DNA of 54,182 nucleotides from a virus (lineage: Duplodnaviria > Heunggongvirae > Uroviricota > Caudoviricetes), in IMG/VR virus record IMGVR_UViG_2585427735_000009; one strand, 5' to 3'. The notes beneath the pieces are model-generated. The model saw only the letters and a list, made by a program, of their open reading frames with translations. It was not told the origin of the DNA and made no database searches. The translations under genes and the position numbers were made by a program. Below, piece after piece: positions 1-33,609 of this stretch (the first letter of the stretch is position 1; each line of letters starts with the position of its first letter).

Positions 1-566
1 GCATTCGCCGCCCTGTTTACCGTTTCCCGTAAACCGACGTTATCGATAAAAGCCCCTTTATCCGGAATGTCTGCGCCGTTCTGCTCCCTGCGCAGGTAAC
101 GGTTATCACCTTCGCTTTTGCTGTAAACATCCAGATTATTACGGGCGGTTCCCTTATTCTCCAGGTCGGCGAGATTCTGATCCTTCGCCAGGGCATTAAC
201 GTCAGCGGGACCAAGACTGTTTTTTGTGGCAAGCGTCCCCAGACCAAGATAACCACGGGCCAGACGCTGGGCCTCCGCACCGGCATCAGCAATTTCTTTC
301 AGGTTATTTTTCCGGGAAAAGGCATTCGCAGCGATAATGGCTTTAATGGACAGCGTAAGCTGGTTTAACTGCGCCTTATCCGGCTGAATACTGGCTTCAG
401 CCAGAATATTCAGCAGTTCGGCCTGGAGAATATTCAGCCAGTCCTGACCAATCCAGCTGATACCTTTTTGTCCGTCACCTTCGGTAAACCAGGTGGTGGT
501 ATTACTCTGCGCCGGTGCCAGCGCAGGCATATTCGCCACGCCGGAATTATTATCAACATGAAACAT
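1..566 (-). CDS. Tail fibre protein, N-terminal part (CDS runs off window start)
   Basis: Hand translation from ATG at 566-564: MFHVDNNSGVANMPALAPAQSNTTTWFTEGDGQKGISWIGQDWLNILQAELLNIL..., the conserved N-terminus of Mu/P2-type tail fibres; start overlaps stop of upstream gene (TAATG). Not in ORF track because no stop in window. Confidence 0.6.
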   Translation of the reverse strand, partial: MFHVDNNSGVANMPALAPAQSNTTTWFTEGDGQKGISWIGQDWLNILQAELLNILAEASIQPDKAQLNQLTLSIKAIIAANAFSRKNNLKEIADAGAEAQRLARGYLGLGTLATKNSLGPADVNALAKDQNLADLENKGTARNNLDVYSKSEGDNRYLRREQNGADIPDKGAFIDNVGLRETVNRAAN

Positions 567-1126
567 TAAATAGTCTCCTCTTCATGGCTGTTTGCATAAA
601 CGTAAATAAACGTCTGCCATGCAGGCTTATAACGGTTCAGAATACATTCCAGCGCACCGCCTTCATAAATACGCAGCGGCGTGAGAATATCATCCAGCAC
701 ATTCATATTCCGGTAGCCGGTTTCACTGTTAATCGTGACAATACTGACCCACTGCGAATCCGGTGAGGGCTGAATGTCAATCTGATAACCAAACTCCGCC
801 GCAAACCGGATATAAAATTCACGGTTCAGCGAGGGCTTCATCCGGTATTTATTTCCGGCATAACGCTGTCGCTCCGTGAGGGTGGCTCCGGCCATATCAC
901 ACTCGGGAAGCCCGAGATAACGCTCCCAGTCTTCCAGCAGCAGGCGCGACGTGTCAGGGAAACGCTCGGCAAGCAGCTGTTTACCCGTCCAGGATACACG
1001 CGCTGTCGAATGACTGAGGCCCAGACATAATGATGCCAGTACGGATGACGGACGCTTGTCCCATGCCAGCCCGTCAGGCAGTAACTGCAACAGGGCGCGC
1101 TGATGCGGGGTCAGGGTTACAGCCAT
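566..1126 (-). CDS. Mu gp48-like baseplate/tail protein
   Basis: 186-aa ORF, position between baseplate J-like gene and tail fibre; translation resembles Mu gp48 family tail proteins; ATG at 1126. Confidence 0.65.
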   Translation of the reverse strand: MAVTLTPHQRALLQLLPDGLAWDKRPSSVLASLCLGLSHSTARVSWTGKQLLAERFPDTSRLLLEDWERYLGLPECDMAGATLTERQRYAGNKYRMKPSLNREFYIRFAAEFGYQIDIQPSPDSQWVSIVTINSETGYRNMNVLDDILTPLRIYEGGALECILNRYKPAWQTFIYVYANSHEEETI

Positions 1127-2199
1127 GTGATTTCTCCTACCGTCAGCAGCTCACTGTCTCCCGCCTGAACTGACGTCAGCGGACTGCGCACTTCAAAATC
1201 CTCCAGATTTTTCACCCCTGCCACCGCCCGCCAGAAAGACGACGGCAGAACCAGACCGCCGGGCCGGGATTCGTTATACAACAGGTCGGTCAGCGCCTGT
1301 TTTACGGCCGCCTGATTCTCCGGTGTTTTCGGGATGATCCTGATGCTGAAGGGCACCGGCTTATTGGTCAGTTTAAACACGGTCACCGTCGGCCCCAGAG
1401 GCTGTCCGACAGGCTGGCCGGTCGCCGGATCATCATGACTGCGGATATAATCCGCCACCCGCTGAACATCACCGTCACCGGGGAAAATATCCGGGTTATT
1501 ATCCTGAACAAACGTTACCCCCACGCTGCCCGCCTGCGGCCATTCCGGGCGGCACCATGCCCGCGTCACGCCCGGCACTTCACGCGCCCAGCGTTCAAAA
1601 TCATACTGCGTGCCGCCGGACGGTGGATTCTGCACCCGGAAAACCAGACGGGAAAGCAGCTCCGGCACGGTTTCCACATCCGCACCACCGGTGATCCCCG
1701 TTCCGGTCACCGTGGCCGTCTGGTTGATCCCCGCCTGCGGTGTGATAAATGTCAGTTTTGTCCCTGCCGGGGCATTCCCCGCACGACCGGCACTTTCGGC
1801 TTCCACACTGACATTCAGCGTACCGGCCTTACCGGTCAGGGAGGTGGTGATACGGTAAACCACGCCATCACTTCGCTGGAGAAGCACACCTTCCTTGATC
1901 CCCGCATCCGTGGTCAGCATCAGCTGAACCGGCCCGTCCCCCCGAGAGGCAGGCTTACGCATGACGCCCCAGAATGCACAGTGTTTCAGCAGTTCGGCTT
2001 CATCGGCTTCGGTCGGGATGATCTGACGCGCAATCCAGGCCAGATGCTCATGCTCCTGAGCAGATAACCCTGCCTGAGCGTAAGCAATGGCATTCAGGGT
2101 GGTTTCATTCACACCCGGCTGCGAGCCGGGCAGGCGCTGGCTGATATCCTGCTGTGTCTGCGTGATTAACTGTGCCAGCGGTAAAGGCTGATAAGGCAT
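1117..2199 (-). CDS. Baseplate J-like protein (Mu gp47-like)
   Basis: 360-aa ORF in baseplate block; 8-nt overlap with downstream gene typical of phage morphogenesis operons. Confidence 0.75.
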   Translation of the reverse strand: MPYQPLPLAQLITQTQQDISQRLPGSQPGVNETTLNAIAYAQAGLSAQEHEHLAWIARQIIPTEADEAELLKHCAFWGVMRKPASRGDGPVQLMLTTDAGIKEGVLLQRSDGVVYRITTSLTGKAGTLNVSVEAESAGRAGNAPAGTKLTFITPQAGINQTATVTGTGITGGADVETVPELLSRLVFRVQNPPSGGTQYDFERWAREVPGVTRAWCRPEWPQAGSVGVTFVQDNNPDIFPGDGDVQRVADYIRSHDDPATGQPVGQPLGPTVTVFKLTNKPVPFSIRIIPKTPENQAAVKQALTDLLYNESRPGGLVLPSSFWRAVAGVKNLEDFEVRSPLTSVQAGDSELLTVGEITWL

Positions 2200-2636
2200 T
2201 ACTCCCCCTTAAGATCAGCATAAAAAATCATGGGCCTCACTGAACCATCAGGCAGGGTTATGCGCACCGAAAGCGCCAGCCGCGCGTGTCCCACACGTTC
2301 TGCATGACAGACCACGGATGACGCCACGCCATCCTGACTGAGCCAGCCCAGCGCCTCATCCGCGTAAGCACGGGCACGGCTTATCACCGAGGCCAGCGTT
2401 TTTTCCCGGCTGAGAAGCCACAGACGGGAGCCAATGGGGCGCGGGCGAAAACTGTCTCCCCACCATCCCCGGCGGTCGCGCGTACCGTCAGGGATTTCAT
2501 CCGATGCCAGCGCCCGGCGGTCAGTAAACAGCGAAATCAGAACGGCCGTCAGCAGACTGTCATCCGTCAGCAGGTCGGCACCGTTCAGTTGCAGCGAACC
2601 GCATCCCTGATCCCACACAATTGCAATATCAGCCAT
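2199..2636 (-). CDS. Mu gp46-like baseplate protein
   Basis: ORF track 2199..2780; likely true start is ATG at 2636 (MADIAIVWDQGCG...), overlapping stop of upstream gene by 8 nt. Confidence 0.6.
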   Translation of the reverse strand: MADIAIVWDQGCGSLQLNGADLLTDDSLLTAVLISLFTDRRALASDEIPDGTRDRRGWWGDSFRPRPIGSRLWLLSREKTLASVISRARAYADEALGWLSQDGVASSVVCHAERVGHARLALSVRITLPDGSVRPMIFYADLKGE

Positions 2637-4357: not shown

Positions 4358-5699
4358 TGATCACCTCCACGCGGCGGCCACCCGGAACAAAAACCGGATC
4401 GGGGATATTGTTTCTGCGGACAAAATACTGCCAGCGGCGGCTGTTACCGGTGGCACGGTACAGCGTGACCAGTGCCGGTTCGGTGGTTCGCACCATGACC
4501 TGAAAAGCACCGGGAAGATGCACGCTCCGCGTGGTTAAATCTTCTGTCAGCGCAAGCCCTGCATCACGTAATGCAAGGGCGGTGCCGGTATGGCCCTGTG
4601 CGGACAGATCCAGCACCTGTTGTTCCATGGCATCGCTCAAATCCCGGTTGATACGCTGCACATCAGCAGAACTTTCCAGCCAGGCCAGTCCGCCCGCACG
4701 GTCAGTATCCTGAACGTGCGTCGTATTCTGCCGGATGACCTGATCCAGCAGTTTTCCGACCGTCTGCGCCTGCGACACCAGGGCTGCACTCTGCATGACG
4801 CTCCGCAGCAGACGGATATTGTTCTGTGCCGCAGGCGTCAGACCAATCAGGCGCTGCGGATCATCCTGTTCGCTGAGGGTGTAACGCAGGGAAGAAAGTG
4901 TGCGGTACAGCTGCGGCATGGCCTGCTCTGTCGTGCTGTCACGGTTTGTGGTCAGGCTGCCGGACGGCGTTCCGGCTTTTCCGGTCAGCGACAGGGAAGG
5001 ATCGCCGGGCAGCCCCGCCAGCACGGCAAACATTCCGGCCAGCGATTCAGCCATGCGACGGGGCGCATTAATCAGGGCGGCGGCATTCCCTTTCAGGGCA
5101 GTAAAACTGGCCGTAAAGGCACTGATATCCTGCACAATCCCCATCCCTGAAACGGCATTCTCCAGCGCATCAATTTTATCGCTGATGGTGTCGGTCATGG
5201 CCTGTACATCATGCAGACCGTCTGAAATCACCGTCCAGCCGTCTGAAAGTGTGTTAAACAGCTGATTCATTGCTGAGCCGCTTTTCTGCTCCAGCGCAGC
5301 TGCCGTATCTTCTGCCACCGAAGGGGCGGTATCGTCACTGGCGGGGATCACGTTGATCGTGAACTCAACCGTTCCCTGCTCGCTGGCGTTATAACGGCTT
5401 TCAAAGCTGTTTATCAGCACGTTTAACGTGCCGTAATCCGGGTGCATCAGTTCACCGGCACCGGGTGCACGCAGCGCATCACGCAGGCGGCTTCGCTGTG
5501 TCTGAAGATCGTCTCCGGTCACTAGAACCGTGAATGTGAACTCCGGGAGTTTTGGCCCCAGATCATCCGCACCGCCGCTTTCACGCAGTGGGTATTCACG
5601 GCGCACAATGTTACGTCCGCCCCGTTCCCGCTGCTCCTGATAAACCAGGAACGGTACGCCACGAAAGGAGCCACGCCCCGGCGTGTCAGTAGAGGCCAT
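4341..5699 (-). CDS. DNA circularization protein N-like (Mu gp43-like)
   Basis: 452-aa ORF directly after tape measure; N-terminus ...SFRGVPFLV... resembles DNA circularization N-terminal domain. Confidence 0.7.
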   Translation of the reverse strand: MASTDTPGRGSFRGVPFLVYQEQRERGGRNIVRREYPLRESGGADDLGPKLPEFTFTVLVTGDDLQTQRSRLRDALRAPGAGELMHPDYGTLNVLINSFESRYNASEQGTVEFTINVIPASDDTAPSVAEDTAAALEQKSGSAMNQLFNTLSDGWTVISDGLHDVQAMTDTISDKIDALENAVSGMGIVQDISAFTASFTALKGNAAALINAPRRMAESLAGMFAVLAGLPGDPSLSLTGKAGTPSGSLTTNRDSTTEQAMPQLYRTLSSLRYTLSEQDDPQRLIGLTPAAQNNIRLLRSVMQSAALVSQAQTVGKLLDQVIRQNTTHVQDTDRAGGLAWLESSADVQRINRDLSDAMEQQVLDLSAQGHTGTALALRDAGLALTEDLTTRSVHLPGAFQVMVRTTEPALVTLYRATGNSRRWQYFVRRNNIPDPVFVPGGRRVEVISEQQD

Positions 5700-7743
5700 A
5701 GTTCCCTCCGTTCCAGACGTTCACATCCAGGCCATGCTGTGCGGTATCATCCACATCAATACTGCGCGCCCGCCAGCCTTCAGGGGCCACAAGCTCCACC
5801 CGTGCGGCGGTTTTCGCGGTGGCCTGTCCGCCGTTTTCGTCACTGCTGCCACGCAGTTTCTGCCAGGCCTGCGTCAGCCAGCCCCCCAGATAATCACCGA
5901 GATAGCTGCCCACCGTGGAACCAATGGCAACCCCGACCGGACCGGCAGCCGCCCCCAGCGCGCCACCGGCGATACTTCCGGCAAGAGAACCCACGGCACC
6001 GGCTTTATCGGCTGCACTGGCGCTGCTGTCCAGCAGTACAGGAGCCGCCATGGCACCGGCCCACAGGGCACCACCACCCAGCCGACCGGCACCACGGAAC
6101 AGCCCGGCAAAACGCCCCAGCCCCATGCGGTTTCCGGCCGCCGTTAGCAGACCACCGGCACGGCTCATCATACGACCGAAGAAGCCCTGTTTACCGGCAC
6201 TCTCCGCCAGTTGCTCACCGGCAGTCACGACGGTCGTGACACCCCGTCCACGTCCGGGGCCGCGTTTTTTACGGCCGCGCACGGTTTTGCCGTCACCGCT
6301 GACCACCACATCCCCGCCACCTGAGGCCAGGCCACCCGCAGGCCAGTTGGTGACCAGCACGGGCTGAACGGCAGCCGGATTTACCCCGGTAAGGAAATTC
6401 AGGAACCGGCCAGCGCGTCCGGGCTGCGTTCCCGGTACAGTGGTCTGCGGTTTGCGGAAGGGCGACGTCAGCACGGAGGTCATCGCCATGCCATAGCGTA
6501 AGGGGGTTGCGCCGAGACGTAATGCCCCCGTCCCCGCAAACCTGAGCACCTTCAGCGCACGGGAGGCGAGATACATATACATCAGGTACTTTGCGGCGGT
6601 CTGCGCACCCTGACCAATACGATCCAGCGCATCGCCATAACCGGCGTCGCGCAGTGCCTGAAGCGTTTCCCTGACTTTCTGAATGACCCGGTAAAAGCCG
6701 GTCGCAGCATCTCTGGCATACTCAAATCCCTGATTCAGAGCTAAGGCCGTCTGTGTGGCCAGCTTATCCTGTAAGCCGCTTTTCTGTGCCGCATCGGCAT
6801 AATCCAGGAAGCCTTTCAGGCTCTTTTTCAGGCTATCAAACGGTCCCTTTGCCATCACCTCGCGGGCAAATCCGTCCCAGACATCGCCCATCATGGACGT
6901 CATTCCCGTCCAGGAATTCATGGCGTTTTTCTGGGCACCTTTTGCCTGTTCGGCCATCACCTGAAATAACAGGCGAATGCTGTCCGGCCCCAGTTTTCCT
7001 TTTTCGCCTTTCTCACGGATGATCTTCTGGTTTACGCCCAGCTTATCGGCCAGTAACTGGTAAACGTTAATCCCGTATCCGGTCAGAATATTGGCGTCCG
7101 CTGCCTGGATACTCTGGCGGGCAAACATCTGTTTGAGTTGCAGGGACGCACCCTGTGCATCTGACAGTGACCAGCCGTGATAGCCGCCCTGATCCTGAAG
7201 CATGGTAATAAAGCGACGGGCTTCCCTGTCACTCATGCCAAACCCGCGACTGGAGGCGTATTCCTGCATAACCCCCGCCAGCCCCCAGGTGGTGTCTTTG
7301 GCGTTCTGTACTGCCCAGGCTTTCACTGCTTCCGTTTTTGCCGTATCGCCATGATTAATGGCGTTGAGACGCAGAATATAGTTCTCCATCTCTGCGGCCG
7401 GGCGGATAAAGGCTTTATTAAAACCGTAGACCGCAGCCCCTCCCGCCAGCATCCCGTAAAGGTTGCTTATCCGCCCGATGGTGCCGGTAATGCTGCCCTG
7501 CAGGCGGTCAAAATCTGACGTTACCGTGCGGATGCTGCCACGAACACCGGCAAGCGTTCGCTGCATACGGGAGCCGACAAGTTCTGTTTCCTGACCGGCC
7601 CGGCGGGCTGCATTTCCAAGACCACCCAGGCCTGTCCTGCCGGAACGGGAGAACGCCCCCAGCTCCTGTGACCACTGGCGGGATTTGGCGGAAATATTGC
7701 CGAGTAAATCGACAATCAGGGAGGCTTTCAGGTTTTTTGCCAT
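5686..7743 (-). CDS. Tail tape measure protein
   Basis: 685-aa ORF, Gly/Ala-rich repetitive segments, located between tail assembly gene and baseplate genes. Confidence 0.85.
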   Translation of the reverse strand: MAKNLKASLIVDLLGNISAKSRQWSQELGAFSRSGRTGLGGLGNAARRAGQETELVGSRMQRTLAGVRGSIRTVTSDFDRLQGSITGTIGRISNLYGMLAGGAAVYGFNKAFIRPAAEMENYILRLNAINHGDTAKTEAVKAWAVQNAKDTTWGLAGVMQEYASSRGFGMSDREARRFITMLQDQGGYHGWSLSDAQGASLQLKQMFARQSIQAADANILTGYGINVYQLLADKLGVNQKIIREKGEKGKLGPDSIRLLFQVMAEQAKGAQKNAMNSWTGMTSMMGDVWDGFAREVMAKGPFDSLKKSLKGFLDYADAAQKSGLQDKLATQTALALNQGFEYARDAATGFYRVIQKVRETLQALRDAGYGDALDRIGQGAQTAAKYLMYMYLASRALKVLRFAGTGALRLGATPLRYGMAMTSVLTSPFRKPQTTVPGTQPGRAGRFLNFLTGVNPAAVQPVLVTNWPAGGLASGGGDVVVSGDGKTVRGRKKRGPGRGRGVTTVVTAGEQLAESAGKQGFFGRMMSRAGGLLTAAGNRMGLGRFAGLFRGAGRLGGGALWAGAMAAPVLLDSSASAADKAGAVGSLAGSIAGGALGAAAGPVGVAIGSTVGSYLGDYLGGWLTQAWQKLRGSSDENGGQATAKTAARVELVAPEGWRARSIDVDDTAQHGLDVNVWNGGNYGLY

Positions 7744-7870
7744 GGGTTACTGCTTCGTTCTGAGAATTTTTTCGGTCTGTCGGCAGTGCCGGTAAAGCTG
7801 CGATAAAGGGAGGTTAAGCGCCCACTCCGGGCCGCTTTTTGTCACCATCCCCAGCACAATTGCGGCTTCT

Positions 7871-8350
7871 TCAATCTGATCCCGGCACTGCATCTGGTCG
7901 CCCCCGTTCAGCGACCAGCTTTCCTGCCATCGCGGAATCAAGCAGGCTTACCGCCGCCATCAGACGGGAGAGATCGCGCTCGCTGAGCTGTCCGATCTGA
8001 CGCGGAGACAATGGCCCCTCAATCTGGCCAACAGCGGCAATCTGACGGCGCAGCAGTGCAATGCCGCGCAGTGCCGGCGAGGCTATCAGAACCGGGCCGC
8101 CATTTCGGGTTTCCATAAGACGCTCGGCCTCGGTTTCCGCGTCAATGCTGTCTTTCGCCGTCAGTTCGCGGAAGGTGACGCGGTATTCACGGGATTCCCC
8201 GAACGGCAGACCGTCGAGCAGATCCACATAGCCGTTCGCCAGCTGTTCAGCCAGCCCGGCGGTGCGGGGATCGCCGTCTTCAAGTACATCCCGGATAGCC
8301 TCCATCACGGCCTCGTCAGAAACCGCCGTTTTTTTCTTACGTGTGGTCAT
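7871..8350 (-). CDS. Tail assembly protein (Mu gp41-like)
   Basis: 159-aa ORF between tail tube and tape measure genes. Confidence 0.5.
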   Translation of the reverse strand: MTTRKKKTAVSDEAVMEAIRDVLEDGDPRTAGLAEQLANGYVDLLDGLPFGESREYRVTFRELTAKDSIDAETEAERLMETRNGGPVLIASPALRGIALLRRQIAAVGQIEGPLSPRQIGQLSERDLSRLMAAVSLLDSAMAGKLVAERGRPDAVPGSD

Positions 8351-8364
8351 TGCATTTTTCCTGA

Positions 8365-8730
8365 TTACTGGACACGGGTACTGGTGGCGCTGGCGAACTT
8401 CGCGGAGATATCACCGCCACCGTCAAGCGAGGCCGGTTCACTGCTCCAGGCCTTCGTCATCATATGGACTTCACCGGTATCGGCCACGAACTCAATCGTG
8501 ACCGCAGTCCAGGTGTTGATTTCATCGGCAGCCGGTGAACCTTCTCCGCCAGCCGGAAATTTACAGTCCAGCGTCGCCTCACGGGGTTTCTCACGATAGC
8601 CATAGACTTTCGCGCCTTTCACCACTTCACGCTCAAAGCCGGACGGGGAGAACGTGGCTCCCTCAAGGGTGGCGTACTCCTGTCCGTTCACACGGATGGT
8701 GGCCGTGCCCTGATGCTGTTTTCCGCTCAT
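8365..8730 (-). CDS. Tail tube protein
   Basis: 121-aa ORF immediately downstream of sheath gene; translation consistent with contractile-tail tube family. Confidence 0.75.
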   Translation of the reverse strand: MSGKQHQGTATIRVNGQEYATLEGATFSPSGFEREVVKGAKVYGYREKPREATLDCKFPAGGEGSPAADEINTWTAVTIEFVADTGEVHMMTKAWSSEPASLDGGGDISAKFASATSTRVQ

Positions 8731-8738
8731 GCCTTACC

Positions 8739-10241
8739 TCACAAAATGAAACGGATCTGCGCGGCCATGAAGCGGAACTGGTTAACCAGATCCGGTGTAC
8801 ACATCACATCCAGACGGTTACGGTCTTTTGTGTTGCGCTCCACGAGCAGATTCTTTTTAAAGGTGTCCAGATTTTCGACCAGCCCGAGTTCCACCCATTC
8901 TTCCCCCAGTGCAATCAGCTGGAGCGTCATAATCTCCGGCGTCACGATATTCTGACCGGGCCGGACGGGAGTACCGTTATCGGCCAGTTTGTGGCGCGGG
9001 AAACGCTGCGTGATAAAGGTGCGCAGGGAATAACGCAGATATGACAGGGTGTAGATGGTTTCTACATCCAGATAGCTGGGATCGCTTTCGCCGTATGCAT
9101 TCTGACGGTACATCGTCACCTGACGTTCAATCTGCACCACATCAGCGGCCGCAACGGTCACCGTGGACATGCCGGTATAAAGCAGGCTGTTTCGCTCTTC
9201 CCGCGTCAGACGAGCCGGTGCTTCAGGTGCCATACGGGCAGGCAGCGCCAGTGTCTGTAATGGTCGGGCCGGATCCGTTGACAGGGAGGGCGCACAGACC
9301 GCACAAATGGAGGCCGCCCAGACATAATCCGGCTCTGGTGCTTTAGGAATAGAAGTGCAGGTAAACAGGAAGTCATTACGGGATTCACCAAAACTGGTTG
9401 CCGTACCGAAGGTGCCGGTATGCGCCATCCAGACCATACCGTCCGACATTTTTACCGGTCCCCAGCGTTTCAGCAGTTCATCCGCCAGAATTTTGAGATT
9501 TGCCGCATCCTTATAGGGCATGACGATGTAGTTGTACTGACGATTCCCCATCCCTGAGACGCTACGGGTGATATCGGGGTTTGTTGCCTTCTGTGTTGGC
9601 GCGACGAGCTCCAGCGTAAGACCGGCCGGTGTAGTTTCACCGTCATAATAGTTCACCCGTAAATCATGAGCTGAGCATTCACCGATAAAGCGGGCGTTAA
9701 CCCCCATGCTCCCTTTAAGTCCTTCAGCATTATCACCACTGACTTCAGCTGCGATAGCAGTGAATGGCGCATCAGTGTCAGCGTTAATGACCTTAGCCAG
9801 CTCTTCCACAAGCTCTTTACCTTTTTTCCCCTTACTGACGGGCAGGAGGTAACGGCGACCGCCGATGTAAACACTTAACACCCCGTCTGCCAATGCTGTT
9901 CCAATGATATTCATCACGCATGCCCTGGACTGACCTGTTCCAGCCCCCTGTGCAATGGCATATAACTCTGTGTCAGGGTTAATGGCGATAAATTCCTCTA
10001 CCATCAGTGCAATCATGGAACCTCGCCCCCAGAGTTCTCTTGCTTGTGAAGCTCGGGTAATACGTACTGGTACATCAAGCTGACCGCGCCCCTGAATGGT
10101 GGTGTCTTTCATTGCAGCCTGACCAAACAACAGTACCGCCTGACGCTGTGGTGGAGTGCCGGTCACGGCCATTGAATTATTGATTTCAATCTGTACCAGC
10201 GGAATGCGATTGTTATCGCCGATATAATCAAAGTTAATCAT
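8739..10241 (-). CDS. Tail sheath protein
   Basis: 500-aa ORF; size, position and translation (MINFDYIGDNNRIPLVQIEINN...) match contractile tail sheath proteins. Confidence 0.88.
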   Translation of the reverse strand: MINFDYIGDNNRIPLVQIEINNSMAVTGTPPQRQAVLLFGQAAMKDTTIQGRGQLDVPVRITRASQARELWGRGSMIALMVEEFIAINPDTELYAIAQGAGTGQSRACVMNIIGTALADGVLSVYIGGRRYLLPVSKGKKGKELVEELAKVINADTDAPFTAIAAEVSGDNAEGLKGSMGVNARFIGECSAHDLRVNYYDGETTPAGLTLELVAPTQKATNPDITRSVSGMGNRQYNYIVMPYKDAANLKILADELLKRWGPVKMSDGMVWMAHTGTFGTATSFGESRNDFLFTCTSIPKAPEPDYVWAASICAVCAPSLSTDPARPLQTLALPARMAPEAPARLTREERNSLLYTGMSTVTVAAADVVQIERQVTMYRQNAYGESDPSYLDVETIYTLSYLRYSLRTFITQRFPRHKLADNGTPVRPGQNIVTPEIMTLQLIALGEEWVELGLVENLDTFKKNLLVERNTKDRNRLDVMCTPDLVNQFRFMAAQIRFIL

Positions 10242-13982: not shown

Positions 13983-14159
13983 TCCGGCAGCATAAGCCGG
14001 TGTTTTTCGGGGCAGGTTTTGCGGGACTTCAGAAAGTGCTGACAGGGGAAAAATGAGAAAGGCGCTTCACGCAGATTTTAAAGCCCGTTAAATACAGGTT
14101 AGAAAATCACGACACGCGCCTGAAGAGGGTAAGGTAATGCGTTTGTATACCTTAAACCA

Positions 14160-14633: not shown

Positions 14634-14754
14634 ATTGCCTCCGCATAAAAGATGAATATAAAATAAACAGGCGGTCAGTGTACGCTTAACTGGTAAAGTC
14701 GGTGCCTGCCTCCGGGTGGATCATGTATGCGGGTTCGACCCCCGCCACTGACCG

Positions 14755-22215: not shown

Positions 22216-22638
22216 TCAGAAAAGCCGGGGCTGCGTGCGTTCCTGATGCAGGCGGCGCTGGTTACGGATAACGGAGTAAATCTGCGTCTCTGACATCTGG
22301 TAGTGGCGGCGCAGGGGTTCAATTTTTTCGCCCTGGCTCCAGCGGGAAAAAATCTCATTATTGCGCAGTTCGGTGAAAAGGGATTCACCGACCGGGAGAT
22401 AATAACCACGCCCGCCCATGTACCCGGCCTGTGCGGCCGCAACTTTACGGGCAAGCATTCCCGCCTGAGCAGGTTCAATCCCCTGACGGTGCAGTTCAGC
22501 ACTGATCACATCAACCAGGTCCCGCAGCGTGCCGGGCCAGTTCTTTTTCAGCTCATCATCAGGAATATCATCCAGACGGTCAATCAGCGCGTGCAGCTGT
22601 TCGCTGTCACCAAACATGCTCATCTGTGTTTCAGCCAT
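22216..22638 (-). CDS. Mor/C-family transcriptional activator of middle/late genes
   Basis: 140-aa ORF between gemA-like gene and lysis genes; C-terminal HTH typical of Mu Mor/C family. Confidence 0.75.
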   Translation of the reverse strand: MAETQMSMFGDSEQLHALIDRLDDIPDDELKKNWPGTLRDLVDVISAELHRQGIEPAQAGMLARKVAAAQAGYMGGRGYYLPVGESLFTELRNNEIFSRWSQGEKIEPLRRHYQMSETQIYSVIRNQRRLHQERTQPRLF

Positions 22639-23221: not shown

Positions 23222-23285
23222 TATCGTGTCTCCGTAACAACAGGCGGCATGGCAACGCCGCCCGGATAAAACTAAAGGTATCGAT

Positions 23286-23696
23286 ATGAAAATAGATTAC
23301 GATGAAGTATTAAGTATTCTCACAACTTTTCAGGATGCTGAAACACCTTTCCTTACACTACAGGATCTGGGCATGGCTGAGGCAGAAGGAGAGGAAAAGG
23401 ATAAAAAAGTTTTTCATCTTATGCTTCTCGCTGATAATGGCTCAATTGTTAATGGTGATATGCAGTCAGAAACACCCAAATATATTGGTTTCTTTTTCCA
23501 TTCTCTGGGCGTTGGTTTCAGAAACACGCCCATTATGCTTACCCAGCAGGGGCATGATTTAGCTAACGCCCTGAGAAAAAAACCAATCCTTGAAAGAATC
23601 AAAAAGGAGTTTACAGACGCACCATTTGATCTAATTAAAGAAGTTACCAAATCAATGTTAACCAGGTTCGTCAAAGAACGTATTGGGATTGACTGA
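23286..23696 (+). CDS. Hypothetical protein, inverted AT-rich insert in early region
   Basis: 136-aa ORF on opposite strand to all flanking phage genes; visibly AT-rich; no recognisable motifs. Confidence 0.5.
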   Translation: MKIDYDEVLSILTTFQDAETPFLTLQDLGMAEAEGEEKDKKVFHLMLLADNGSIVNGDMQSETPKYIGFFFHSLGVGFRNTPIMLTQQGHDLANALRKKPILERIKKEFTDAPFDLIKEVTKSMLTRFVKERIGID

Positions 23697-23966
23697 ACAA
23701 CTTAATTCAGCCAGTAATCGCAGGGCGGCGACAGCCGCCTGCTTGTCACTTCTTTTAGCTATTTCCGCAAGAGTATGCACAATCCATAACGGACTTAACG
23801 CCACGGCTGAATCCAGAATCATGTCATCCATAATAATTTCTGGCATATCCCGCTTGTCACATTCTTTATCCATAAAAGAAACGAATTTCTCTGCATCTTC
23901 CGGTTTCATGCCTCCGGCGATAAGGATTTTGCGATATTCATAAGACGATCTTAATTCAATACTCAT
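23658..23966 (-). CDS. Hypothetical early-region protein
   Basis: 102-aa ORF; 3' end overlaps convergently with the plus-strand ORF. Confidence 0.4.
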   Translation of the reverse strand: MSIELRSSYEYRKILIAGGMKPEDAEKFVSFMDKECDKRDMPEIIMDDMILDSAVALSPLWIVHTLAEIAKRSDKQAAVAALRLLAELSCSVNPNTFFDEPG

Positions 23967-23981
23967 TATTCACCTGCCTGC

Positions 23982-24374
23982 TTAATCTGTTTCCAGTGCT
24001 TTGCTACGGGCTATAGCCTCACATTCAAAAAATACCGACTCCGGCACGCGCTCTTTTAATTCACGAACAAGGAAATCATTAACGCGTTCATGACGTCTTA
24101 TATTTCTTTCCTTTTCCTCCTGGCGCAATACAGCAAGGCGGTATTCAACAGCCCGGCGTTGTTTCTGAAAGACAGCCAGTGCTTTTCTGGCAGCATTACG
24201 CCATGCATCATCGCCACATGGTGCGTATTCAAGCTGAAATTTAATCTCTTCAATAGTTTCTTTGATTTTTGCCAGCAAGCTAAGACAGTCGCTTATTGTC
24301 TCCAGCTTTTCATTATCAATATAACTTCTCACGCATTCACCTCCCGTAATTCCGGTAAAGCCGAAATATGACAC
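23982..24374 (-). CDS. Hypothetical early-region protein
   Basis: 130-aa ORF in co-directional early gene block. Confidence 0.45.
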   Translation of the reverse strand: MSYFGFTGITGGECVRSYIDNEKLETISDCLSLLAKIKETIEEIKFQLEYAPCGDDAWRNAARKALAVFQKQRRAVEYRLAVLRQEEKERNIRRHERVNDFLVRELKERVPESVFFECEAIARSKALETD

Positions 24375-24658
24375 CAGTGCGTCACCTGTCCGTCTTCATC
24401 TTCAAGGCAGGCTCCGGTTTCTTCATCAACAAAAAAGCCTTCATACCCCATATGGCCGATGCGCAGCTCCTGACGGTGACCATACTGAACAATCAGCACG
24501 ACAGCCTCCATATCAGGTGGGAAAGCATCATTCAGTGAATGCCAGGGATAACCGCGTAAATCCCCGAAATAAACACCGGTCAGCGTTCCGCCACAGAGCG
24601 GCATTCCGGCGGCACACACAAGAGGTTCATCTGATTCAACAAATAAGGTCGTTATCAT
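24329..24658 (-). CDS. Hypothetical early-region protein
   Basis: 109-aa ORF; 4-nt overlap with upstream gene. Confidence 0.45.
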   Translation of the reverse strand: MITTLFVESDEPLVCAAGMPLCGGTLTGVYFGDLRGYPWHSLNDAFPPDMEAVVLIVQYGHRQELRIGHMGYEGFFVDEETGACLEDEDGQVTHWCHISALPELREVNA

Positions 24659-25206
24659 GGCGTTAACTCCCGTAATACAGCGTCCTCGGCAGTCCGGCGA
24701 CGGTAATAAACTGCGTGAGCAGAATGTTCAGATATTCCAAACTTTTCGCCAATTTCCCGGAATGACAGACGGCGTGGGTAATCGGAATCACGCAGCGCAC
24801 GTATAAGACGTACATCATCATCAGATATGCGCGTGCCGGGGCGTAACTCTCCGCACTTTGTTAATCCAGCACCAATCATTCCTGCCCGACATCTGACAGA
24901 ATCTTTATTACGTCCGAGATATTCTCCCATTTGCTGGCAGGTCATTGTTCTGGCATTTTTTCGAATAAACTTATCTTCATCAGGTGTAAATCTTGGGTGT
25001 TTATATTTCAGTAACTCCGGGTATGAACTGCGCAATACACCAGTCCGGTTATATACAGCCCAGACAGTTCTTTTTATTCTGGCAGCAATATCCTTAACCG
25101 GGGTGGATGAATAAAGCGCAATCAGTAGCGCATCTTCTTCAGGTGTCCACGCGCGGACATGAGCGGGTGTACGACCTTTTCGCCCCATGTGTTGTAAAAT
25201 CATCAT
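24655..25206 (-). CDS. Hypothetical protein with Myb/SANT-like helix-turn-helix repeats
   Basis: 183-aa ORF; repeated W/F-x-TP-(E/D)-ED motifs (RAWTPEEDALLIALY, RFTPDEDKFIRKN, ISDDDVRLIRAL) suggest tandem HTH repeats. Confidence 0.45.
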   Translation of the reverse strand: MMILQHMGRKGRTPAHVRAWTPEEDALLIALYSSTPVKDIAARIKRTVWAVYNRTGVLRSSYPELLKYKHPRFTPDEDKFIRKNARTMTCQQMGEYLGRNKDSVRCRAGMIGAGLTKCGELRPGTRISDDDVRLIRALRDSDYPRRLSFREIGEKFGISEHSAHAVYYRRRTAEDAVLRELTP

Positions 25207-26901: not shown

Positions 26902-27432
26902 TTATTTATTCAGTCCGGCATCCTGTTCAAAAGGCTCGACATAAAAACTTTCAGCGCCTTTATTCACCTTTATACCGGCAATGCCTTTCACCGCATCCGG
27001 CTCCGCCAGGACGGCTTCCTTGTTCACTTCCTCTTTCGTGCGGATGAATCGCTCAAGCCCCATACGGCGCAGCGTGTCAATCACACCTTCCACATCACGG
27101 CTGACGCTGCATGATGGCGTTCCCAGCCGCCATGACACCGTTCCGGTGGTCAGATTGGCAGTTTTGGTTTTGCCGCCGTTCGTCAGCTCATCACGGTTGG
27201 TTTTACACCAGTCCTGAATCCCTTTAAAAAGCACTTTGATTTGCTTTTTAAGATTTTCAATCTGCGGCGTATAACGGGCGGTGATTTCTGCCACTTCATC
27301 ATTCATCGCCGTTTCCAGGCGCAGCGCCTCTCGCTGAATATCGCCCAGGGTGCGGATATCGCGGCTGACTTCTTCGCGGGTCTGCGGTGCGGCCTCGGCT
27401 ACAGCCTTTAATTTTGTAACGCGTTTTGCCAT
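26902..27432 (-). CDS. gam: Host-nuclease inhibitor protein Gam (Mu Gam-like)
   Basis: 176 aa; strong similarity to Mu Gam as recalled (..DIQREALRLETAMND.., WCKTNRDELTNGGKTKTANLTTGTVSWR, FIRTKEEVNKEA, PFEQDAG). Confidence 0.85.
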   Translation of the reverse strand: MAKRVTKLKAVAEAAPQTREEVSRDIRTLGDIQREALRLETAMNDEVAEITARYTPQIENLKKQIKVLFKGIQDWCKTNRDELTNGGKTKTANLTTGTVSWRLGTPSCSVSRDVEGVIDTLRRMGLERFIRTKEEVNKEAVLAEPDAVKGIAGIKVNKGAESFYVEPFEQDAGLNK

Positions 27433-27737: not shown

Positions 27738-27741
27738 GGAA

Positions 27742-28292: not shown

Positions 28293-28293
28293 C

Positions 28294-28560: not shown

Positions 28561-28788
28561 TTAGCTGACTTGTTTCGCACCAACAGAACGGCATATTCCG
28601 CTGTAAACTTCTGTCGCACCTTCGCGATCAAGTCCGGCAGATATCACCATTCGTGTGCGGTCATTAAATTCAAAAAGTAAATCGCCACATTCTTTATTTT
28701 CGGCCAGTGAAATCACCTTCACGTTATCGAAATTAACCAGGTAAAAGCGTCCGTAAATATCAGGAATATTAAATACCGCCATAATCAC
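28561..28788 (-). CDS. Hypothetical small early protein
   Basis: 75-aa ORF immediately downstream of B. Confidence 0.4.
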   Translation of the reverse strand: MIMAVFNIPDIYGRFYLVNFDNVKVISLAENKECGDLLFEFNDRTRMVISAGLDREGATEVYSGICRSVGAKQVS

Positions 28789-29726
28789 ACCTGTGAGAGT
28801 AATTCAGGGTTGGTATAAACCTCTTTAAAGGCCGCATTAATATGTTTTTCTGTCAGCGCCGCGCCTTCACCGCTGGCGGTGAGCCACGCCTGGTTAAGCG
28901 TATGTGTCAGAACGCGTAACGCTCCCGGCTTTTCAGCGATAGCCTGCATGACGGCCAGCTCGGCCTCACCACTGATCCCCCACGCCATGGCAATGGCCAG
29001 CACATCCGCCTTTTTGGCCTTGCGAAGTTGTTTTGTACGGGCAAGACGGCTGAACAGGCGCGATAAATCATCAAAGGCGCGGCGTCCACCTTTAAACAAT
29101 CCGCGCGGGTTACCAATAAGCACCATCCCGATCCCCGTGGCGTCCTGAATTGCCCGGAGTTGCTCCAGACCGTCAATACCAAGATGATCCGCCTCATCCA
29201 CAATCACCAGTCCACGCGTTCCCATCAGGCGACGGCGGATGGCGCGGGATAATGCCCCTTTGTTCGCGCGGGTGTAATCAATCCCCAGCGCATCGGCCAG
29301 CTCCAGCAGACACTCCGTGACGCTGGAGTGCGCGGGTGACAGGGTGATCATCCAGGTGTTTGGTTGCTCCTGGCAGTAATTACGGGCAGTGGCCGTTTTA
29401 CCCACACCCGGTACGCCCACAATAACGTTAATACAGCCCATCAGGCGAACCGCCTGAAACAGTGCGCGCAGCTCCTGGACTGTCTGAGTTTCCACAAACT
29501 GCGGCGGTTCCGGCAGTGCGCTTTGTTTATTCCAGTTCTCATACCAGGAGCGCAGGGAAGCAGCCACAGCAGCGTTATCGCCTTTATATTTTCCCTTACG
29601 GAAAGCCGATAATGTGCCGTCGGAAATTCCCGCCTCTCTGGCGATGGCATACTGCGTCAGTACGCCGCCATCAATAAGTTCATCAATGGTCTTGATTACA
29701 TCGTTAATATCGGTCATATTATTCAC
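28785..29726 (-). CDS. B: DNA transposition protein B (AAA+ ATPase, Mu B-like)
   Basis: 313 aa; N-terminal HTH, Walker A VGVPGVGKT, Walker B VIVDEADHL; colinear with Mu B. Confidence 0.9.
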   Translation of the reverse strand: MNNMTDINDVIKTIDELIDGGVLTQYAIAREAGISDGTLSAFRKGKYKGDNAAVAASLRSWYENWNKQSALPEPPQFVETQTVQELRALFQAVRLMGCINVIVGVPGVGKTATARNYCQEQPNTWMITLSPAHSSVTECLLELADALGIDYTRANKGALSRAIRRRLMGTRGLVIVDEADHLGIDGLEQLRAIQDATGIGMVLIGNPRGLFKGGRRAFDDLSRLFSRLARTKQLRKAKKADVLAIAMAWGISGEAELAVMQAIAEKPGALRVLTHTLNQAWLTASGEGAALTEKHINAAFKEVYTNPELLSQV

Positions 29727-29799: not shown

Positions 29800-31890
29800 T
29801 CAGGCCAGCGGATCACTTTCTTTTAATTTCGCTTCGAGCAACTGCAATCCCCGCTGGAAATTACGCTCGTATTCTTCATCAGGTTCATCGTCAGCGACCG
29901 GTTGCTGAACGGTCACCGTATTACCCACAGGGCGGTATATGTTTTCCAGCCAGGGCTCCTGCGGCTTGTGCTCCAGCACGTTGACAACCTCATCCTCGGC
30001 ATCACGGATTTTTTCCTCTGCGCGTTTACGCATGCCTTTAAGGCGCTGCTGCTGTTTGTAGTATTCCGCGCTGACAGGGAAGGCTTCGCGTTTATTGCCG
30101 TCCCATACCGCCTCGCAAATCACGCTGCCATCCGGGCGGCGCACGGTAATTCGTTCGGCATCATGAATGTCATAGCTGATAAGTACCTTACGGCCATGCT
30201 CGTCACGCAGCTCGGGCGCGTAGTAAATATTATTCAGCCAGCGTATTTCACAGCGTCTTACAGGGCGCTCCACCATCGGCCGGAACATATCCCGCAGTTC
30301 AACATCGGACAGCCATTCAATTTCCGTGTCCTCTTCCGCCAGGCGTTTTTTTCTGAACTCCGCCGGGCTGTAATGTTTACCGTTCGGCTTCATGGGTAAT
30401 TCATCGTGCGGCCGGTTGTTGTACCACTCAACACCGTCACGAATGGCATCAATCAGTTCAGACCAGGACGGTAAATCACGCATCGCTGACTGCTGCCGGG
30501 CGTTCAGCCGTTTGCCCTGTTGCAGGGCACTGAATGCCGAGCGTAAATCGCGGTTGGTTTTACGTAACGTCTCGCGATCTGCTCCTTTCCCGAAATAGGT
30601 GCGGTATTTACGGGCTATGCGCATCGGTAATGTGCGGTTAAGCCGTTCGATAATGCCCCGTCCCTGCGGATTACCGGCAATCCCTGTCGGGTGATTAATC
30701 CCCAGTCGTGGCAGTATCCCCACAATCTCCTTATCCAGGACGTCGGCGGTTTCCCCGGAGCCATTATCCGAGTAATACAGAAACGGTTTGCCATGATGGC
30801 GAATACCGTGCTGTATGGCACCGGCTACGGCGAAAACATTTTCAGCCAGGTCAAGGCTCCAGCCCACCACAAAGCGCGTGCCACCGTCGATAACAAAGGT
30901 CACTTCCGGTGCGAATGGCCGCCCGTGAACCGGGTGCGCGCATTTCAGCTTCATGCCGTGACCGTCACCAATCCAGACATAATTCACCGGCATTCTGGAC
31001 CAGTCGCGGCGCGTGAATCCCTCAAGCTGACGGTATTCACTGCCAGTTACCCGGCCTTTTTGTTTCACCACTTCCGGCAGTTTCTTCATTGCGCGGCGAA
31101 TGGTGTCATAAGAGGGCATGATATCGAGCATATAAGGCTCATCAGCGTGCCGGTGCTGCCATTCAGCAACAAAATCCTCGTAAGCCTCGGTCATTGGTCG
31201 GCCGTTTGACTGGCGATACTGCGCCAGAAATTCGGGCAGCCAGTTAATATCTTCGGCTTTTATTTCCTGGCGTTTACCCGGTGCCAGTAAAAGCAGGCGT
31301 TCAGCGGCGTTCTGTGCCTTGTTAAAGGCCGCAATCCAGCGTTTCAGCGTGATTTCACTCAACGCGCGGCTGTTTCCCTTTTTGGCGTTCGCCGTCTCAA
31401 CCATTGCCACAATGCGCTCGTCCAGTTGTGATCGTGCCAGGCTGTTAACGAGGAACCGGATAGCCTTAGCGCAACTAAAGCCGGGTTGTTGCGCGATTTT
31501 CAGCACCTCGCTGACGATCGCTATTCGTGCCTCTGCCACTTTACGTTGGTTTTCAGTCAGGGCATTGAGGCGTTCGACCATCAGTTGGGGTGATCCGCGA
31601 TATGCCTCCACCGCATCAACCACGGCAGGTGAGCGTCTGGCCTTTGTCACCACCGGAGCCGGTGATTCATCGGCTTTTTGCGTCATCAGTTGCAGGGCGT
31701 AGCGTTCACGTAATGCCTGCTGCGTCACTTCAGGTAAACAGTCGATGCTGTATTCAGTTGCTTTAGAGCCTGAGCGACGACGGGAACAACAGCTTTTCCC
31801 TTGTACGTAACGTTGTAATGCCTGGCGAATACCTTTTGTTGTAGCAGGCATTCCGGGCGCGCCAATCAGTTCTTTTGCAATGACATACAT
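29800..31890 (-). CDS. A: Mu-type DDE transposase A
   Basis: 696-aa ORF between ner and B; size and position of Mu A. Confidence 0.88.
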   Translation of the reverse strand: MYVIAKELIGAPGMPATTKGIRQALQRYVQGKSCCSRRRSGSKATEYSIDCLPEVTQQALRERYALQLMTQKADESPAPVVTKARRSPAVVDAVEAYRGSPQLMVERLNALTENQRKVAEARIAIVSEVLKIAQQPGFSCAKAIRFLVNSLARSQLDERIVAMVETANAKKGNSRALSEITLKRWIAAFNKAQNAAERLLLLAPGKRQEIKAEDINWLPEFLAQYRQSNGRPMTEAYEDFVAEWQHRHADEPYMLDIMPSYDTIRRAMKKLPEVVKQKGRVTGSEYRQLEGFTRRDWSRMPVNYVWIGDGHGMKLKCAHPVHGRPFAPEVTFVIDGGTRFVVGWSLDLAENVFAVAGAIQHGIRHHGKPFLYYSDNGSGETADVLDKEIVGILPRLGINHPTGIAGNPQGRGIIERLNRTLPMRIARKYRTYFGKGADRETLRKTNRDLRSAFSALQQGKRLNARQQSAMRDLPSWSELIDAIRDGVEWYNNRPHDELPMKPNGKHYSPAEFRKKRLAEEDTEIEWLSDVELRDMFRPMVERPVRRCEIRWLNNIYYAPELRDEHGRKVLISYDIHDAERITVRRPDGSVICEAVWDGNKREAFPVSAEYYKQQQRLKGMRKRAEEKIRDAEDEVVNVLEHKPQEPWLENIYRPVGNTVTVQQPVADDEPDEEYERNFQRGLQLLEAKLKESDPLA

Positions 31891-31891
31891 A

Positions 31892-32140
31892 TCATGACGC
31901 CTTTCTCATATAGCTCTTAACCTGGTATCGACTGGGCCAGATTTCTTCAGGTGATACCCCAAGAGCATCAGCAATTATTTGCTGATACGGTCGGCAAGGA
32001 GTACGTAATACGCTTTTCAGCGAATCCCTGCTGTAACCAGCCTTTAAAGATAAAGAGCGCAGTGATAAGCCAGCCATGTGTAAGCGCGCCTTGATGATTT
32101 CAGGCGGCCAATCGTGATCTGAAACTTCTCTTCTACTCAT
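31892..32140 (-). CDS. ner: Ner-like DNA-binding protein
   Basis: 82 aa; HTH ..HMAGLSLRSLSLKAGYSRDSLKSVL.. and C-terminal ..ADALGVSPEEIWPSRY match Ner/Nlp family. Confidence 0.85.
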   Translation of the reverse strand: MSRREVSDHDWPPEIIKARLHMAGLSLRSLSLKAGYSRDSLKSVLRTPCRPYQQIIADALGVSPEEIWPSRYQVKSYMRKAS

Positions 32141-32320: not shown

Positions 32321-32851
32321 ATGTCGCAGGGAAAAGAACCTGTTATTGAACGTATTGGAATGCTTACAAAGCGCTACCCTTCAAGAAGTGCAGCTGCCAG
32401 AGCGTGGGGAATCAATATCAACACATTAAACAGCTATTTCAAGGGAGGACAAACACAACCAGCCCCCAGAGAAAGTATCCTTATACGAATTTCTGAAAGT
32501 GAAGGCGTTAGTCTTGAGTGGCTTAAAGAGGGCAAGGGTGAATTACCAAACGATATTGGTATTTATGGTAATTTTGGTTGTTCTGGTGATAAGGGAGATC
32601 AGCTTACACAGATGCTTTCATTCCTTACGAAAGACGAACGAGAACAGTTAACCAATCTCCTTGCTCGCAAAGGTGTAGAGACGGTTCTGACACTGCTGAA
32701 TAAAGAAAACCAGGATTTATTACAACTAGAAGGCAGGAAGCGCCTGGCTGCGTTGATGATTGTAGATATGCCAGACGATTGCGTCAGAGAGATTTTGGAA
32801 AAAACCGAGACAAGTAGGCAATCAAATCCGGTAGAATCTAAAGCGGGTTAG
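32321..32851 (+). CDS. c: Mu c-type repressor
   Basis: ATG at 32321 with AAGAGGT RBS (MSQGKEPVIERIGMLTKRY...); divergent from ner/A/B; the upstream extension in the ORF track is probably not translated. Confidence 0.75.
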   Translation: MSQGKEPVIERIGMLTKRYPSRSAAARAWGININTLNSYFKGGQTQPAPRESILIRISESEGVSLEWLKEGKGELPNDIGIYGNFGCSGDKGDQLTQMLSFLTKDEREQLTNLLARKGVETVLTLLNKENQDLLQLEGRKRLAALMIVDMPDDCVREILEKTETSRQSNPVESKAG

Positions 32852-33010
32852 TTTGGCGAGGCTGGCCCGTATGTTAGTTGCCATATAGATTTAATGAAGT
32901 TTTAAACGCTTTAAAAAGTTGAGATCGCAGTATCAAAAGTTTTGCCGATTTTAGAATAAACGATTAATTATTGCACAATCGATATCAAATAGACTTTAAG
33001 CGCTCATCCA

Positions 33011-33101
33011 GACATCACCTGTTTTATTTCAGTATCTTACAGGTGATTTCACCTCCTTTCACTAAAACCCTCGTTGGTATCAAATGATTCACCTGGTTAC
33101 A
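33011..33101. repeat. Prophage terminal region with repeated TCACCT(G)/CAGGTGA motifs (putative transposase binding sites, attL-like end)
   Basis: TCACCTG at 33015, CAGGTGA at 33040, TCACCT at 33049, TCACCTGG at 33089; element ends ...GGTTACA at 33101 (TG on minus strand) immediately before dbpA sequence. Confidence 0.5.
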
Positions 33102-33609
33102 CGGTAGCGCCCGTGTACTGGTTGCTACTGATGTTGCTGCGCGTGGTCTGGATATTAAATCGCTTGAGCTGGTGGTGAACTTTGAGCTGGCGTGGGACCC
33201 TGAAGTTCATGTACATCGCATCGGTCGTACAGCTCGTGCAGGAAATAGCGGTCTGGCGATCAGTTTCTGTGCTCCGGAAGAAGCACAGCGGGCCAATATC
33301 ATTTCTGACATGTTGCAGATAAAACTTAACTGGCAAACGCCGCCAGCTAATAGTTCCATTGTGCCGCTGGAAGCAGAAATGGCAACGTTGTGTATCGATG
33401 GCGGGAAAAAAGCCAAAATGCGCCCGGGTGATGTATTAGGTGCACTGACAGGAGATATCGGGCTTAATGGCGCAGATATTGGCAAAATCGCCGTGCATCC
33501 GGCGCATGTCTATGTCGCGGTCCGTCAGGCTGTTGCTCATAAAGCATGGAAACAGTTACAGGGCGGGAAGATTAAAGGAAAAACGTGCCGGGTGCGGTTA
33601 TTAAAATAA
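33102..33609 (+). pseudogene. dbpA: 3' fragment of ATP-dependent RNA helicase gene dbpA, truncated by prophage insertion
   Basis: In-frame translation from 33103: [47 protein letters not shown]... (DEAD-box motifs V and VI) to stop at 33609; no N-terminal helicase core upstream, phage DNA instead. Confidence 0.85.

Follow-up and report, generated by a model that had tools for sequence, protein, structure and literature searches.

A probable Sp18-type transposable prophage in dbpA of Escherichia coli 3-475-03_S1_C2, with the termini and the 4-bp target duplication of its family read from junction sequences

How does a Mu-like prophage come to lie inside the RNA helicase gene dbpA, next to a Rac-type prophage, and where exactly does it end? 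These questions are raised by IMG/VR record IMGVR_UViG_2585427735_000009, a stretch of 54182 bp (the window) which is the whole of draft contig JOQC01000029.1 of Escherichia coli 3-475-03_S1_C2 (assembly GCA_000713905.1). Judged from the evidence below, the element is very probably a temperate, transposable myovirus of the type of Sp18, a prophage of E. coli O157:H7 Sakai, integrated into dbpA of this strain. An initial annotation of the window had proposed a Mu-like transposable prophage in dbpA at positions 1-33609. The nature of the element is borne out by Pfam domains (transposase, MuB, Gam, Mor, portal, gpT) and by collinearity with Sp18, and its site by a terminus that is the same in 11 other insertions and by a reciprocal fusion protein present in public assemblies. 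Its extent has to be corrected, as the phage ends at 33101 and position 33609 is the dbpA stop. The 5-bp, CGGTA-like target duplication that had been expected turns out to be a 4-bp CGGT.

The dbpA junctions and the phage termini

On the + strand the junction near 33100 reads ...CACCTGGTTACA|CGGTAGCGCCCGTGTACTGGTTGCTACTGAT, and the uninterrupted dbpA of strain EC261 reads TTTGCTAACGGTAGCGCCCG across the insertion point. Comparison of the two places the start of host homology at 33101/33102, with the phage end joined to dbpA within codons 289-290. The TGTA previously noticed on the minus strand at the phage terminus is indeed there, as TACA at + strand 33098-33101. From 33103 onward the frame encodes the C-terminal third of DbpA and stays open until the stop at 33607-33609. 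The flank (33104-36000) corresponds to dbpA-ttcA-intR-xisR of EC261 and other E. coli genomes at 99.9-100% identity.

DbpA is a DEAD-box helicase specific for hairpin 92 of 23S rRNA. A complete DbpA would combine a two-RecA-domain core and a C-terminal RNA-binding domain in one open reading frame (ORF); the window holds residues 290-457 of 457 only, so that the claim of a disrupted helicase gene stands. The remaining 3' fragment carries motifs V and VI and the RNA-binding domain (Pfam recognizes the DbpA domain on a 145-aa ORF called from it) and has neither the native start nor a promoter, while the 5' product lacks motifs V and VI as well as the RNA-binding domain. By this reckoning dbpA is split at codon 290 into two pieces that are predicted to be non-functional. 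Mutants with a dbpA null allele grow normally and loss of the gene is well tolerated in E. coli; the insertion is therefore probably neutral for the host.

One codon of the fragment (33463-33465, in GLNGADIG) shows a private Asp-to-Asn (D-to-N) change compared to the otherwise identical EC261 allele. An exact-sequence look-up among approximately 15 billion proteins finds no full-length DbpA with this change, whereas the parent allele is very common in the same collection. A mutation gained once dbpA had been disrupted would fit this, as would a sequencing error.

To locate the phage ends we read both junctions of 11 independent insertions of Sp18-type phage, three of which (FRIK2455, ERL06-2497 and Balcarce_24.2) were picked from a listing free of flank-similarity bias. 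In all 11 the element is 5'-TGTAACCAGG...CGCCGCGCTATA-3', i.e. TGTA...TATA, and is abutted on both sides by a perfect 4-bp repeat: TTCG in JE86 (citF), TAAA in Sakai (sorM), ACTG in DLI.5a (ypdB), TACG in ECP19-198 (ABC permease), TTCG in 2013C-3250 (DUF1367), TGCC in 2013C-3252 (tail tip), CCAG in Z1816 (tape measure), GACG in 7_15_5C (J protein), ATTA in FRIK2455 (dcuC), ATAG in ERL06-2497 (comR) and TCTG in Balcarce_24.2 (quinone reductase). A fifth base agrees at chance frequency only. The T of TGTA is constant in 12/12 copies and the last A of TATA is constant whatever flanks it; with the S end as query, 58/58 of the full-length matches listed reach the final A. The left (c, repressor) terminus thus is 5'-TGTAACCAGG, located at 33101 in the dbpA copy, and starts with TG, which reads CA-3' on the opposite strand. 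At the right end, ...GCGCTATA-3', the final bases are TA-3', constant in all copies read. On the strength of these junctions, Sp18-type phages make a 4-bp target duplication, a length for which we found no report in the literature searched. For the window copy the duplicated target is CGGT.

Several other placements of the ends were tried and rejected. Duplications of 5 bp (ACGAA/CGAAT in citF, CGGTA/ACGGT in dbpA) were dropped after the 11 junction pairs had been read. A phage end at ...TTACACG was suggested by many BLAST hits that extend to query position 304, which proved to be a ranking bias toward flanks resembling the window; an apparent preference for 'CG' targets was discarded because of the same bias. 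The RefSeq feature for Sp18 in Sakai (572-39330 of our Sakai locus, L005) is offset from the TGTA...TATA ends by 1 and 5 bases.

Three copies of the motif TTTGATAY lie in the 175 nt next to the c end, and relatives also have three in the approximately 85 nt next to the S end. An exact 9-mer search gives three matches in the window against 0.8 expected, a number equalled in 9/100 shuffles. The repeats are arranged like the L1-L3 and R1-R3 sites of Mu and are presumed to be transposase-binding sites.

What should the other side of the prophage look like? The rules from the 11 insertions predict a junction ...CGTTTTGCTAACGGT|TATAGCGCGG... (AACGGT|TATAGCG). Under the CGGT model a partner contig is expected to join ...CGTTTTGCTAACGGT to TATAGCGCGGCGATTTTTTTGATACC, with CGTTTTGCTAACGGTTATAGCGCGGCGATTTTTTTGATACC as the junction string. 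Such a junction encodes a fusion of 326 aa: DbpA(1-290) followed by 36 phage-derived residues (YSAAIFLIPICISFDTAEKRRYATYLILNRRFSFEF), the S end reading identically in the four relatives examined. Exactly this protein is found among the 15 billion, on two contigs of which the longest is 104734 bp, and both fusions predicted by a 5-bp CGGTA model (...GNSAAI... and ...GI-stop) are absent from the same look-up. The 5' part of dbpA that the initial annotation recommended looking for is probably the one in this DbpA(1-290)::phage protein, the link to this strain being an exact protein match.

A dbpA insertion is seen in 0/5426 complete E. coli genomes, and an exact 30-nt junction scan of a species-representative genome collection gives no match. 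Because no complete genome has an insertion in dbpA and the sites are otherwise scattered, a second, independent insertion at the same nucleotide and in the same orientation is very unlikely. We infer from the exact match that the fusion is the partner junction of the same event, in which case CGGT would be duplicated on both sides of the prophage.

Gene content, transposition module and relatives

The 56 annotated genes of Sp18 were translated and searched against the window by tblastn, Pfam was run on ten window proteins, and a PHROG search was used as a supplement (Table 1). The first 45 Sp18 genes, from repressor to tail fibre, have collinear counterparts in 45/45 cases at 61-100% identity (most 85-100%). 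None of these is frameshifted or truncated, except the tail fibre, which ends at residue 188 (window position 3). Identity to Sp18 is 97-100% for the A, B, ner and repressor proteins. The first 33.1 kb is GC-rich (0.52-0.61), with almost every long ORF on the minus strand; the repressor, for which Pfam gives no match, is transcribed divergently from ner.

Compared with Sp18 of Sakai and its relatives in Shiga toxin-producing E. coli (PMC2669165, PMC7430833, PMC10132054), the termini are identical (TGTAACCAGGTGAATCATTTGATACC..., with the same terminal 26 nt), as are the gene order and the habit of inserting at varied sites. Differences are the dbpA site, which is new, the sheath, tape measure and baseplate (only 74-77% identical) and the accessory genes in the early region. 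Collinearity, high identity and identical termini thus place the element in the Sp18-like group, and by these sequence comparisons it is a new copy and variant of this known prophage family at a new site.

In the window as far as the tail fibre, and in relatives beyond it, the layout is also that of Mu (Muvirus mu): c / ner-A-B-kil-gam ... gemA-mor-lys-packaging-head-contractile tail-invertible tail fibre-com-mom, with Mu-type portal, gpT, Gam and Mor domains in Pfam and transposition to arbitrary sites. A DDE transposase, a MuB ATPase and scattered sites are all present, as in Mu-like transposable phages generally, and so is a short duplication, read in the 11 relatives and supported indirectly, through the fusion protein, in this copy. 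In contrast, the marks of Muvirus proper (a 5-bp duplication, TG...CA termini and a close sequence relationship) are all missing: the right end is TA-3' rather than CA-3', 4 instead of 5 bp are duplicated, and the DNA match to Mu, D108 and SfMu is only approximately 0.6 kb at about 72% (portal/F region).

Transposase A is a divergent member of the DDE type. Pfam assigns it HTH_Tnp_Mu_1 (28.5 bits, cut-off 23.3) and Mu-transpos_C (63.3 bits), and D309 and D375 align with the catalytic D269 and D336 of MuA. Residues 363-425, including the third acid E415 (IIERLNR), find their best PDB matches in retroviral integrase cores, and the spacing of the triad D309, D375, E415 (66/40) is like that of a retroviral integrase, different from Mu. 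With phmmer against the PDB, MuA is not retrieved at E <= 0.001, the relationship being visible in direct pairwise comparison only. Directly downstream lies the B protein, 48% identical to MuB over 300 aa (E 6e-97); with an A that is only 22% identical to MuA beside it, the transposition module seems mosaic. Among isolated phages the closest transposases, closer than MuA, are those of Mannheimia phage vB_MhM_3927AP2 (45%) and of Pseudomonas phages of the D3112/MP22/JBD type (approximately 30%), both with alignments that span 84-90% of the protein. These phages have other hosts and other virion modules (those of Pseudomonas are siphoviruses), and DNA similarity is limited to a terminase segment.

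A mechanism may be proposed along the following lines. Transposase A would assemble on the TTTGATAY repeats of the two termini, target DNA would be captured and delivered by the MuB-like ATPase, the transposase would join the phage 3' ends to the target with a 4-nt stagger, and repair of the gaps would leave the CGGT duplication. Since the prophage part contains neither a site-specific integrase nor an attachment (att) site (the only integrase in the window is that of Rac), the position of insertion would be essentially arbitrary. Transposition had indeed been put forward as the reason for the intragenic site, which agrees with the occurrence of the same phage type in many unrelated genes. It might further be argued that the Sp18-like lineage is a mechanistically distinct branch of transposable phages, combining a MuB-type partner, a catalytic core nearer to retroviral integrases than to MuA, asymmetric TG/TA-3' termini and a 4-bp stagger, which is shorter than the 5 bp (Mu) and 6 bp (B3) scars by which such phages are recognized. 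We hold this view tentatively, at somewhat less than even chances; a description of such a mechanism for Sp18 was not found in the literature searched.

The Sp18 family occupies 284 places in 232/5426 complete E. coli genomes (approximately 4%), under many different host genes. The 11 insertions that we read are in citF, sorM, ypdB, an ABC permease gene, dcuC, comR, a quinone reductase gene and several genes of lambdoid prophages; the junction sequences read number 12, all different. Most of the element is carried by some 228 complete genomes. The dbpA copy is 92-98% identical to family members at the DNA level, the closest among complete E. coli genomes being the JE86 strains (97.6%). Close DNA matches in the phage collection are limited to two 'inserted Mu-like phage' regions in records of Shiga toxin (Stx) phages, at 91.7% identity. 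Related copies have been described at strain-specific sites, often in other prophages (PMC7430833, PMC10132054), and 6/10 Sp18-type copies were in mobile elements (PMC10132054). Many insertions in the complete genomes likewise interrupt genes of other prophages (for tail tip/J, tape measure, minor tail L, DUF1367 and tail fibre) or lie in Stx phages, and two are on plasmids.

Weighing the readings of the locus

Could the junction simply be an assembly artefact, the strain itself having an uninterrupted dbpA? As a draft contig assembled from short reads, with both ends in repeats (the repeat of the invertible segment and IS421), the window makes the question a reasonable one. Yet the join falls exactly at the canonical terminus of 11 other insertions, the predicted 4-bp overlap is found in an independently recorded reciprocal fusion protein, and no full-length DbpA with the private D-to-N allele is on record. 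We regard an artefact as exceedingly improbable. A 5-bp duplication (CGGTA or ACGGT), as in a classical Mu-type insertion, has in its favour that Mu makes 5 bp and B3 6 bp (PMC8705779), and taken by itself the dbpA locus would also allow ACGGT, as a host A happens to precede CGGT. The 11 junction pairs argue otherwise, with only 4 bp repeated in each and constant outer bases, and so do the S-end matches and the missing CGGTA fusions; a 5-bp scar is very improbable.

A defective, immobile remnant is unlikely as well, though it deserves more consideration. Deleted derivatives do exist in the family: the ypdB copy, seen in three unrelated-looking strains (DLI.5a, TOE17, AST46), is in DLI.5a (L006, NZ_CP103972.1 1239265-1249725; the only one read) a decayed 10.4-kb internal-deletion derivative with fused transposase and sheath fragments that has kept both ends. 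Moreover, approximately 5 kb of the present copy is not seen, and the private mutation in the defunct dbpA fragment is a hint that the insertion is not entirely recent. Against this, the 45 visible genes, among them those for the repressor, A and B and every head and tail gene, are full length and without frameshift, and the fusion protein implies that no less than the last 108 nt of the S end is there, reading as in four relatives. Because no gene in its 33.1 kb is disrupted, the prophage may still be active, as Sp18 is, a phage released spontaneously. Sp18 has been reported as predicted to be intact and as efficiently packaged, without circularisation and without induction by mitomycin C (PMC2669165).

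Some points do count against a complete and transposable Sp18-type prophage in dbpA. The S end, com/mom and invertase of this copy are outside the contig, so that the copy may be incomplete or inactive. Transposase A shares only 22% identity with MuA (collinear BLASTP, E 9e-11). The 4-bp stagger is a proposal from junction sequences. Finally, the reciprocal link runs through an exact protein match, and the source of that protein (ENA) is presumably the same strain.

Surroundings of the insertion and implications

The window covers 33.1 kb of a prophage of approximately 38 kb, with about 5 kb of the S/mom end missing. In relatives this part holds the remainder of the tail fibre, a tail-fibre assembly gene, the invertase, three small genes, com and mom. 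The tail-fibre (host-range) segment of Sp18 is invertible, with inverted-repeat arms of 182 nt at L005 32932-33113 and 34135-34316; the contig start maps 39 nt into the repeat (approximately L005 32970), and the prophage is cut because the assembler broke there. The invertible segment with its invertase and the right-end com/mom, as seen in relatives, would thus lie beyond the contig start. At its other end the contig stops in the transposase gene of IS421. Judging by their positions, both ends are ordinary repeat-induced assembly breaks.

A few features of the phage part differ from the Sakai annotation. The small early genes ECs_5772, 4958 and 4959 of Sp18 have no counterpart, and other genes are found instead at 23.2-24.7 kb. 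One of these (23286-23696, +) is the lone + strand gene in the minus-strand early region; it belongs to PHROG 585 (unknown function), resembles DUF2513 weakly (under the Pfam cut-off), is found in JE86 but not in Sakai Sp18, and looks like a moron or accessory gene. The Gp27-like gene is separated from the terminase by an 82-aa ORF (19323-19571, -; PHROG 30922); part of the C-terminus of Sp18 Gp27 matches a segment of it (31 aa at 71% identity, window 19326-19418), and the ORF is present in JE86 and unannotated in Sakai Sp18. In relatives (L002 23298-23377, L007 17847-17927) RefSeq places a 'tRNA-OTHER' in the gap that separates the F-like head gene from the G-like one. ARAGORN finds no tRNA in the window, and Rfam gives no match in the phage part, including the equivalent position at approximately 14634-14754.

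The second prophage is of the Rac type and occupies its canonical ttcA site. Its integrase gene intR lies 1.62 kb from the phage end, in agreement with the initial estimate of about 1.6 kb and of two prophages back to back; ttcA, the Rac att core and intR follow at 1.5-1.6 kb. Because Rac is at its normal site and the Sp18 type inserts all over the chromosome, the adjacency looks coincidental. With Rac of E. coli K-12 this second prophage shares the ttcA core, intR, xisR, rcbA, ralR/RalA, recT, recE, kilR and sieB; compared with K-12, this variant has an anti-phage dGTPase, a PDC-S32/AbiJ-like gene, a metallo-beta-lactamase (MBL)-fold gene, hok/sok and IS421. The cargo island (46630-52710) occurs in the same arrangement at 99.9% identity in two dog isolates.

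Table 1. Positions of prophage, junction and neighbouring features in the 54182-bp window.
Feature	Position	Strand	Evidence or remark
Sp18-type Mu-like prophage	1-33101	-	Repressor (c) end at 33101 to mid tail-fibre gene; cut by contig start
Tail-fibre gene, N-terminal 188 codons	1-566	-	Sp18 tail fibre residues 1-188 map to 566-3
Contractile tail module	5686-10241	-	Pfam Phage_sheath_1, Phage_sheath_1C; Sp18 counterparts
Tape measure	5686-7743	-	
Tail assembly protein	7871-8350	-	
Tail tube	8365-8730	-	
Tail sheath	8739-10241	-	
Packaging and head module	11911-19323	-	Pfam, PHROG, Sp18 counterparts
Major head protein gpT	11911-12858	-	Pfam Mu-like_gpT, E 3.5e-119
Protease/scaffold	12858-13982	-	
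G-like protein	14160-14633	-	
F-like head morphogenesis protein	14755-16086	-	
Mu-type portal	16070-17668	-	Pfam Portal_Mu, E 4e-93
Large terminase	17659-19323	-	PHROG terminase large subunit
Lysozyme	21644-22144	-	Sp18 lysozyme, 98% identity
Mor late-transcription activator	22216-22638	-	Pfam Mor, E 1.5e-30
Variable accessory stretch, early region	23222-24660		GC 0.44; differs from Sp18; PHROGs of unknown function
Gam host-nuclease inhibitor	26902-27432	-	Pfam Phage_Mu_Gam, E 7e-42
MuB-like AAA+ transposition ATPase	28785-29726	-	Pfam Phage-MuB_C, AAA_22
Transposase A, 696 aa, divergent DDE	29800-31890	-	Pfam Mu-transpos_C, HTH_Tnp_Mu_1
Ner-like early regulator	31892-32140	-	Pfam HTH_35, E 2.5e-19 (Ner-type winged helix-turn-helix); 100% identical to Sp18 protein
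Repressor, c-like	32321-32851	+	PHROG 3037 'transcriptional repressor', E 6.7e-61; 97.7% identical to Sp18 ECs_4943
Left (c) end	32929-33101	-	TTTGATAY at 33076-33084, ~32981-32990, 32929-32937; terminal TGTA 33098-33101
Target duplication CGGT, window copy	33102-33105	+	
dbpA 3' fragment	33103-33609	+	Codons 290-457 (of 457) and stop
ttcA	33738-34673	-	RefSeq annotation of identical stretch
Rac att core TTGTTCAGGTTGTATTGTTCTTTCTT	34624-34649		att core search; inside ttcA 5' end
Rac integrase intR	34725-35960	-	Pfam Phage_integrase; start of Rac-type prophage
RalA antitoxin small RNA	36281-36459	+	Rfam, 220 bits; RalR/RalA type I toxin-antitoxin, as in K-12 Rac
Anti-phage dGTPase	46630-48018		PADLOC, E 1e-144
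PDC-S32/AbiJ-like gene	48348-49322		
MBL-fold protein	49563-50789	-	Weak LmuA-like similarity
DUF4145 protein	51504-52208		
sok antitoxin RNA	52535-52710		Followed by IS421 at contig end

For this genome the finding is mainly an annotation matter: dbpA is to be read as a pseudogene that a possibly active transposable phage has split. Pathogenic E. coli commonly carry phages of the Sp18 type, often inside other prophages including Stx phages, and the exact termini (TGTA...TATA) together with the 4-bp duplication allow insertions of these phages to be called correctly. Tools or curators that look for a scar of 5 or 6 bp would place the ends one base off, and the Sakai annotation seems to be an instance of this. 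The 4-bp stagger and the TA-3' right end of the Sp18 lineage may be undescribed so far; biochemical confirmation of the stagger would add modestly to the knowledge of Mu-family transpososomes.

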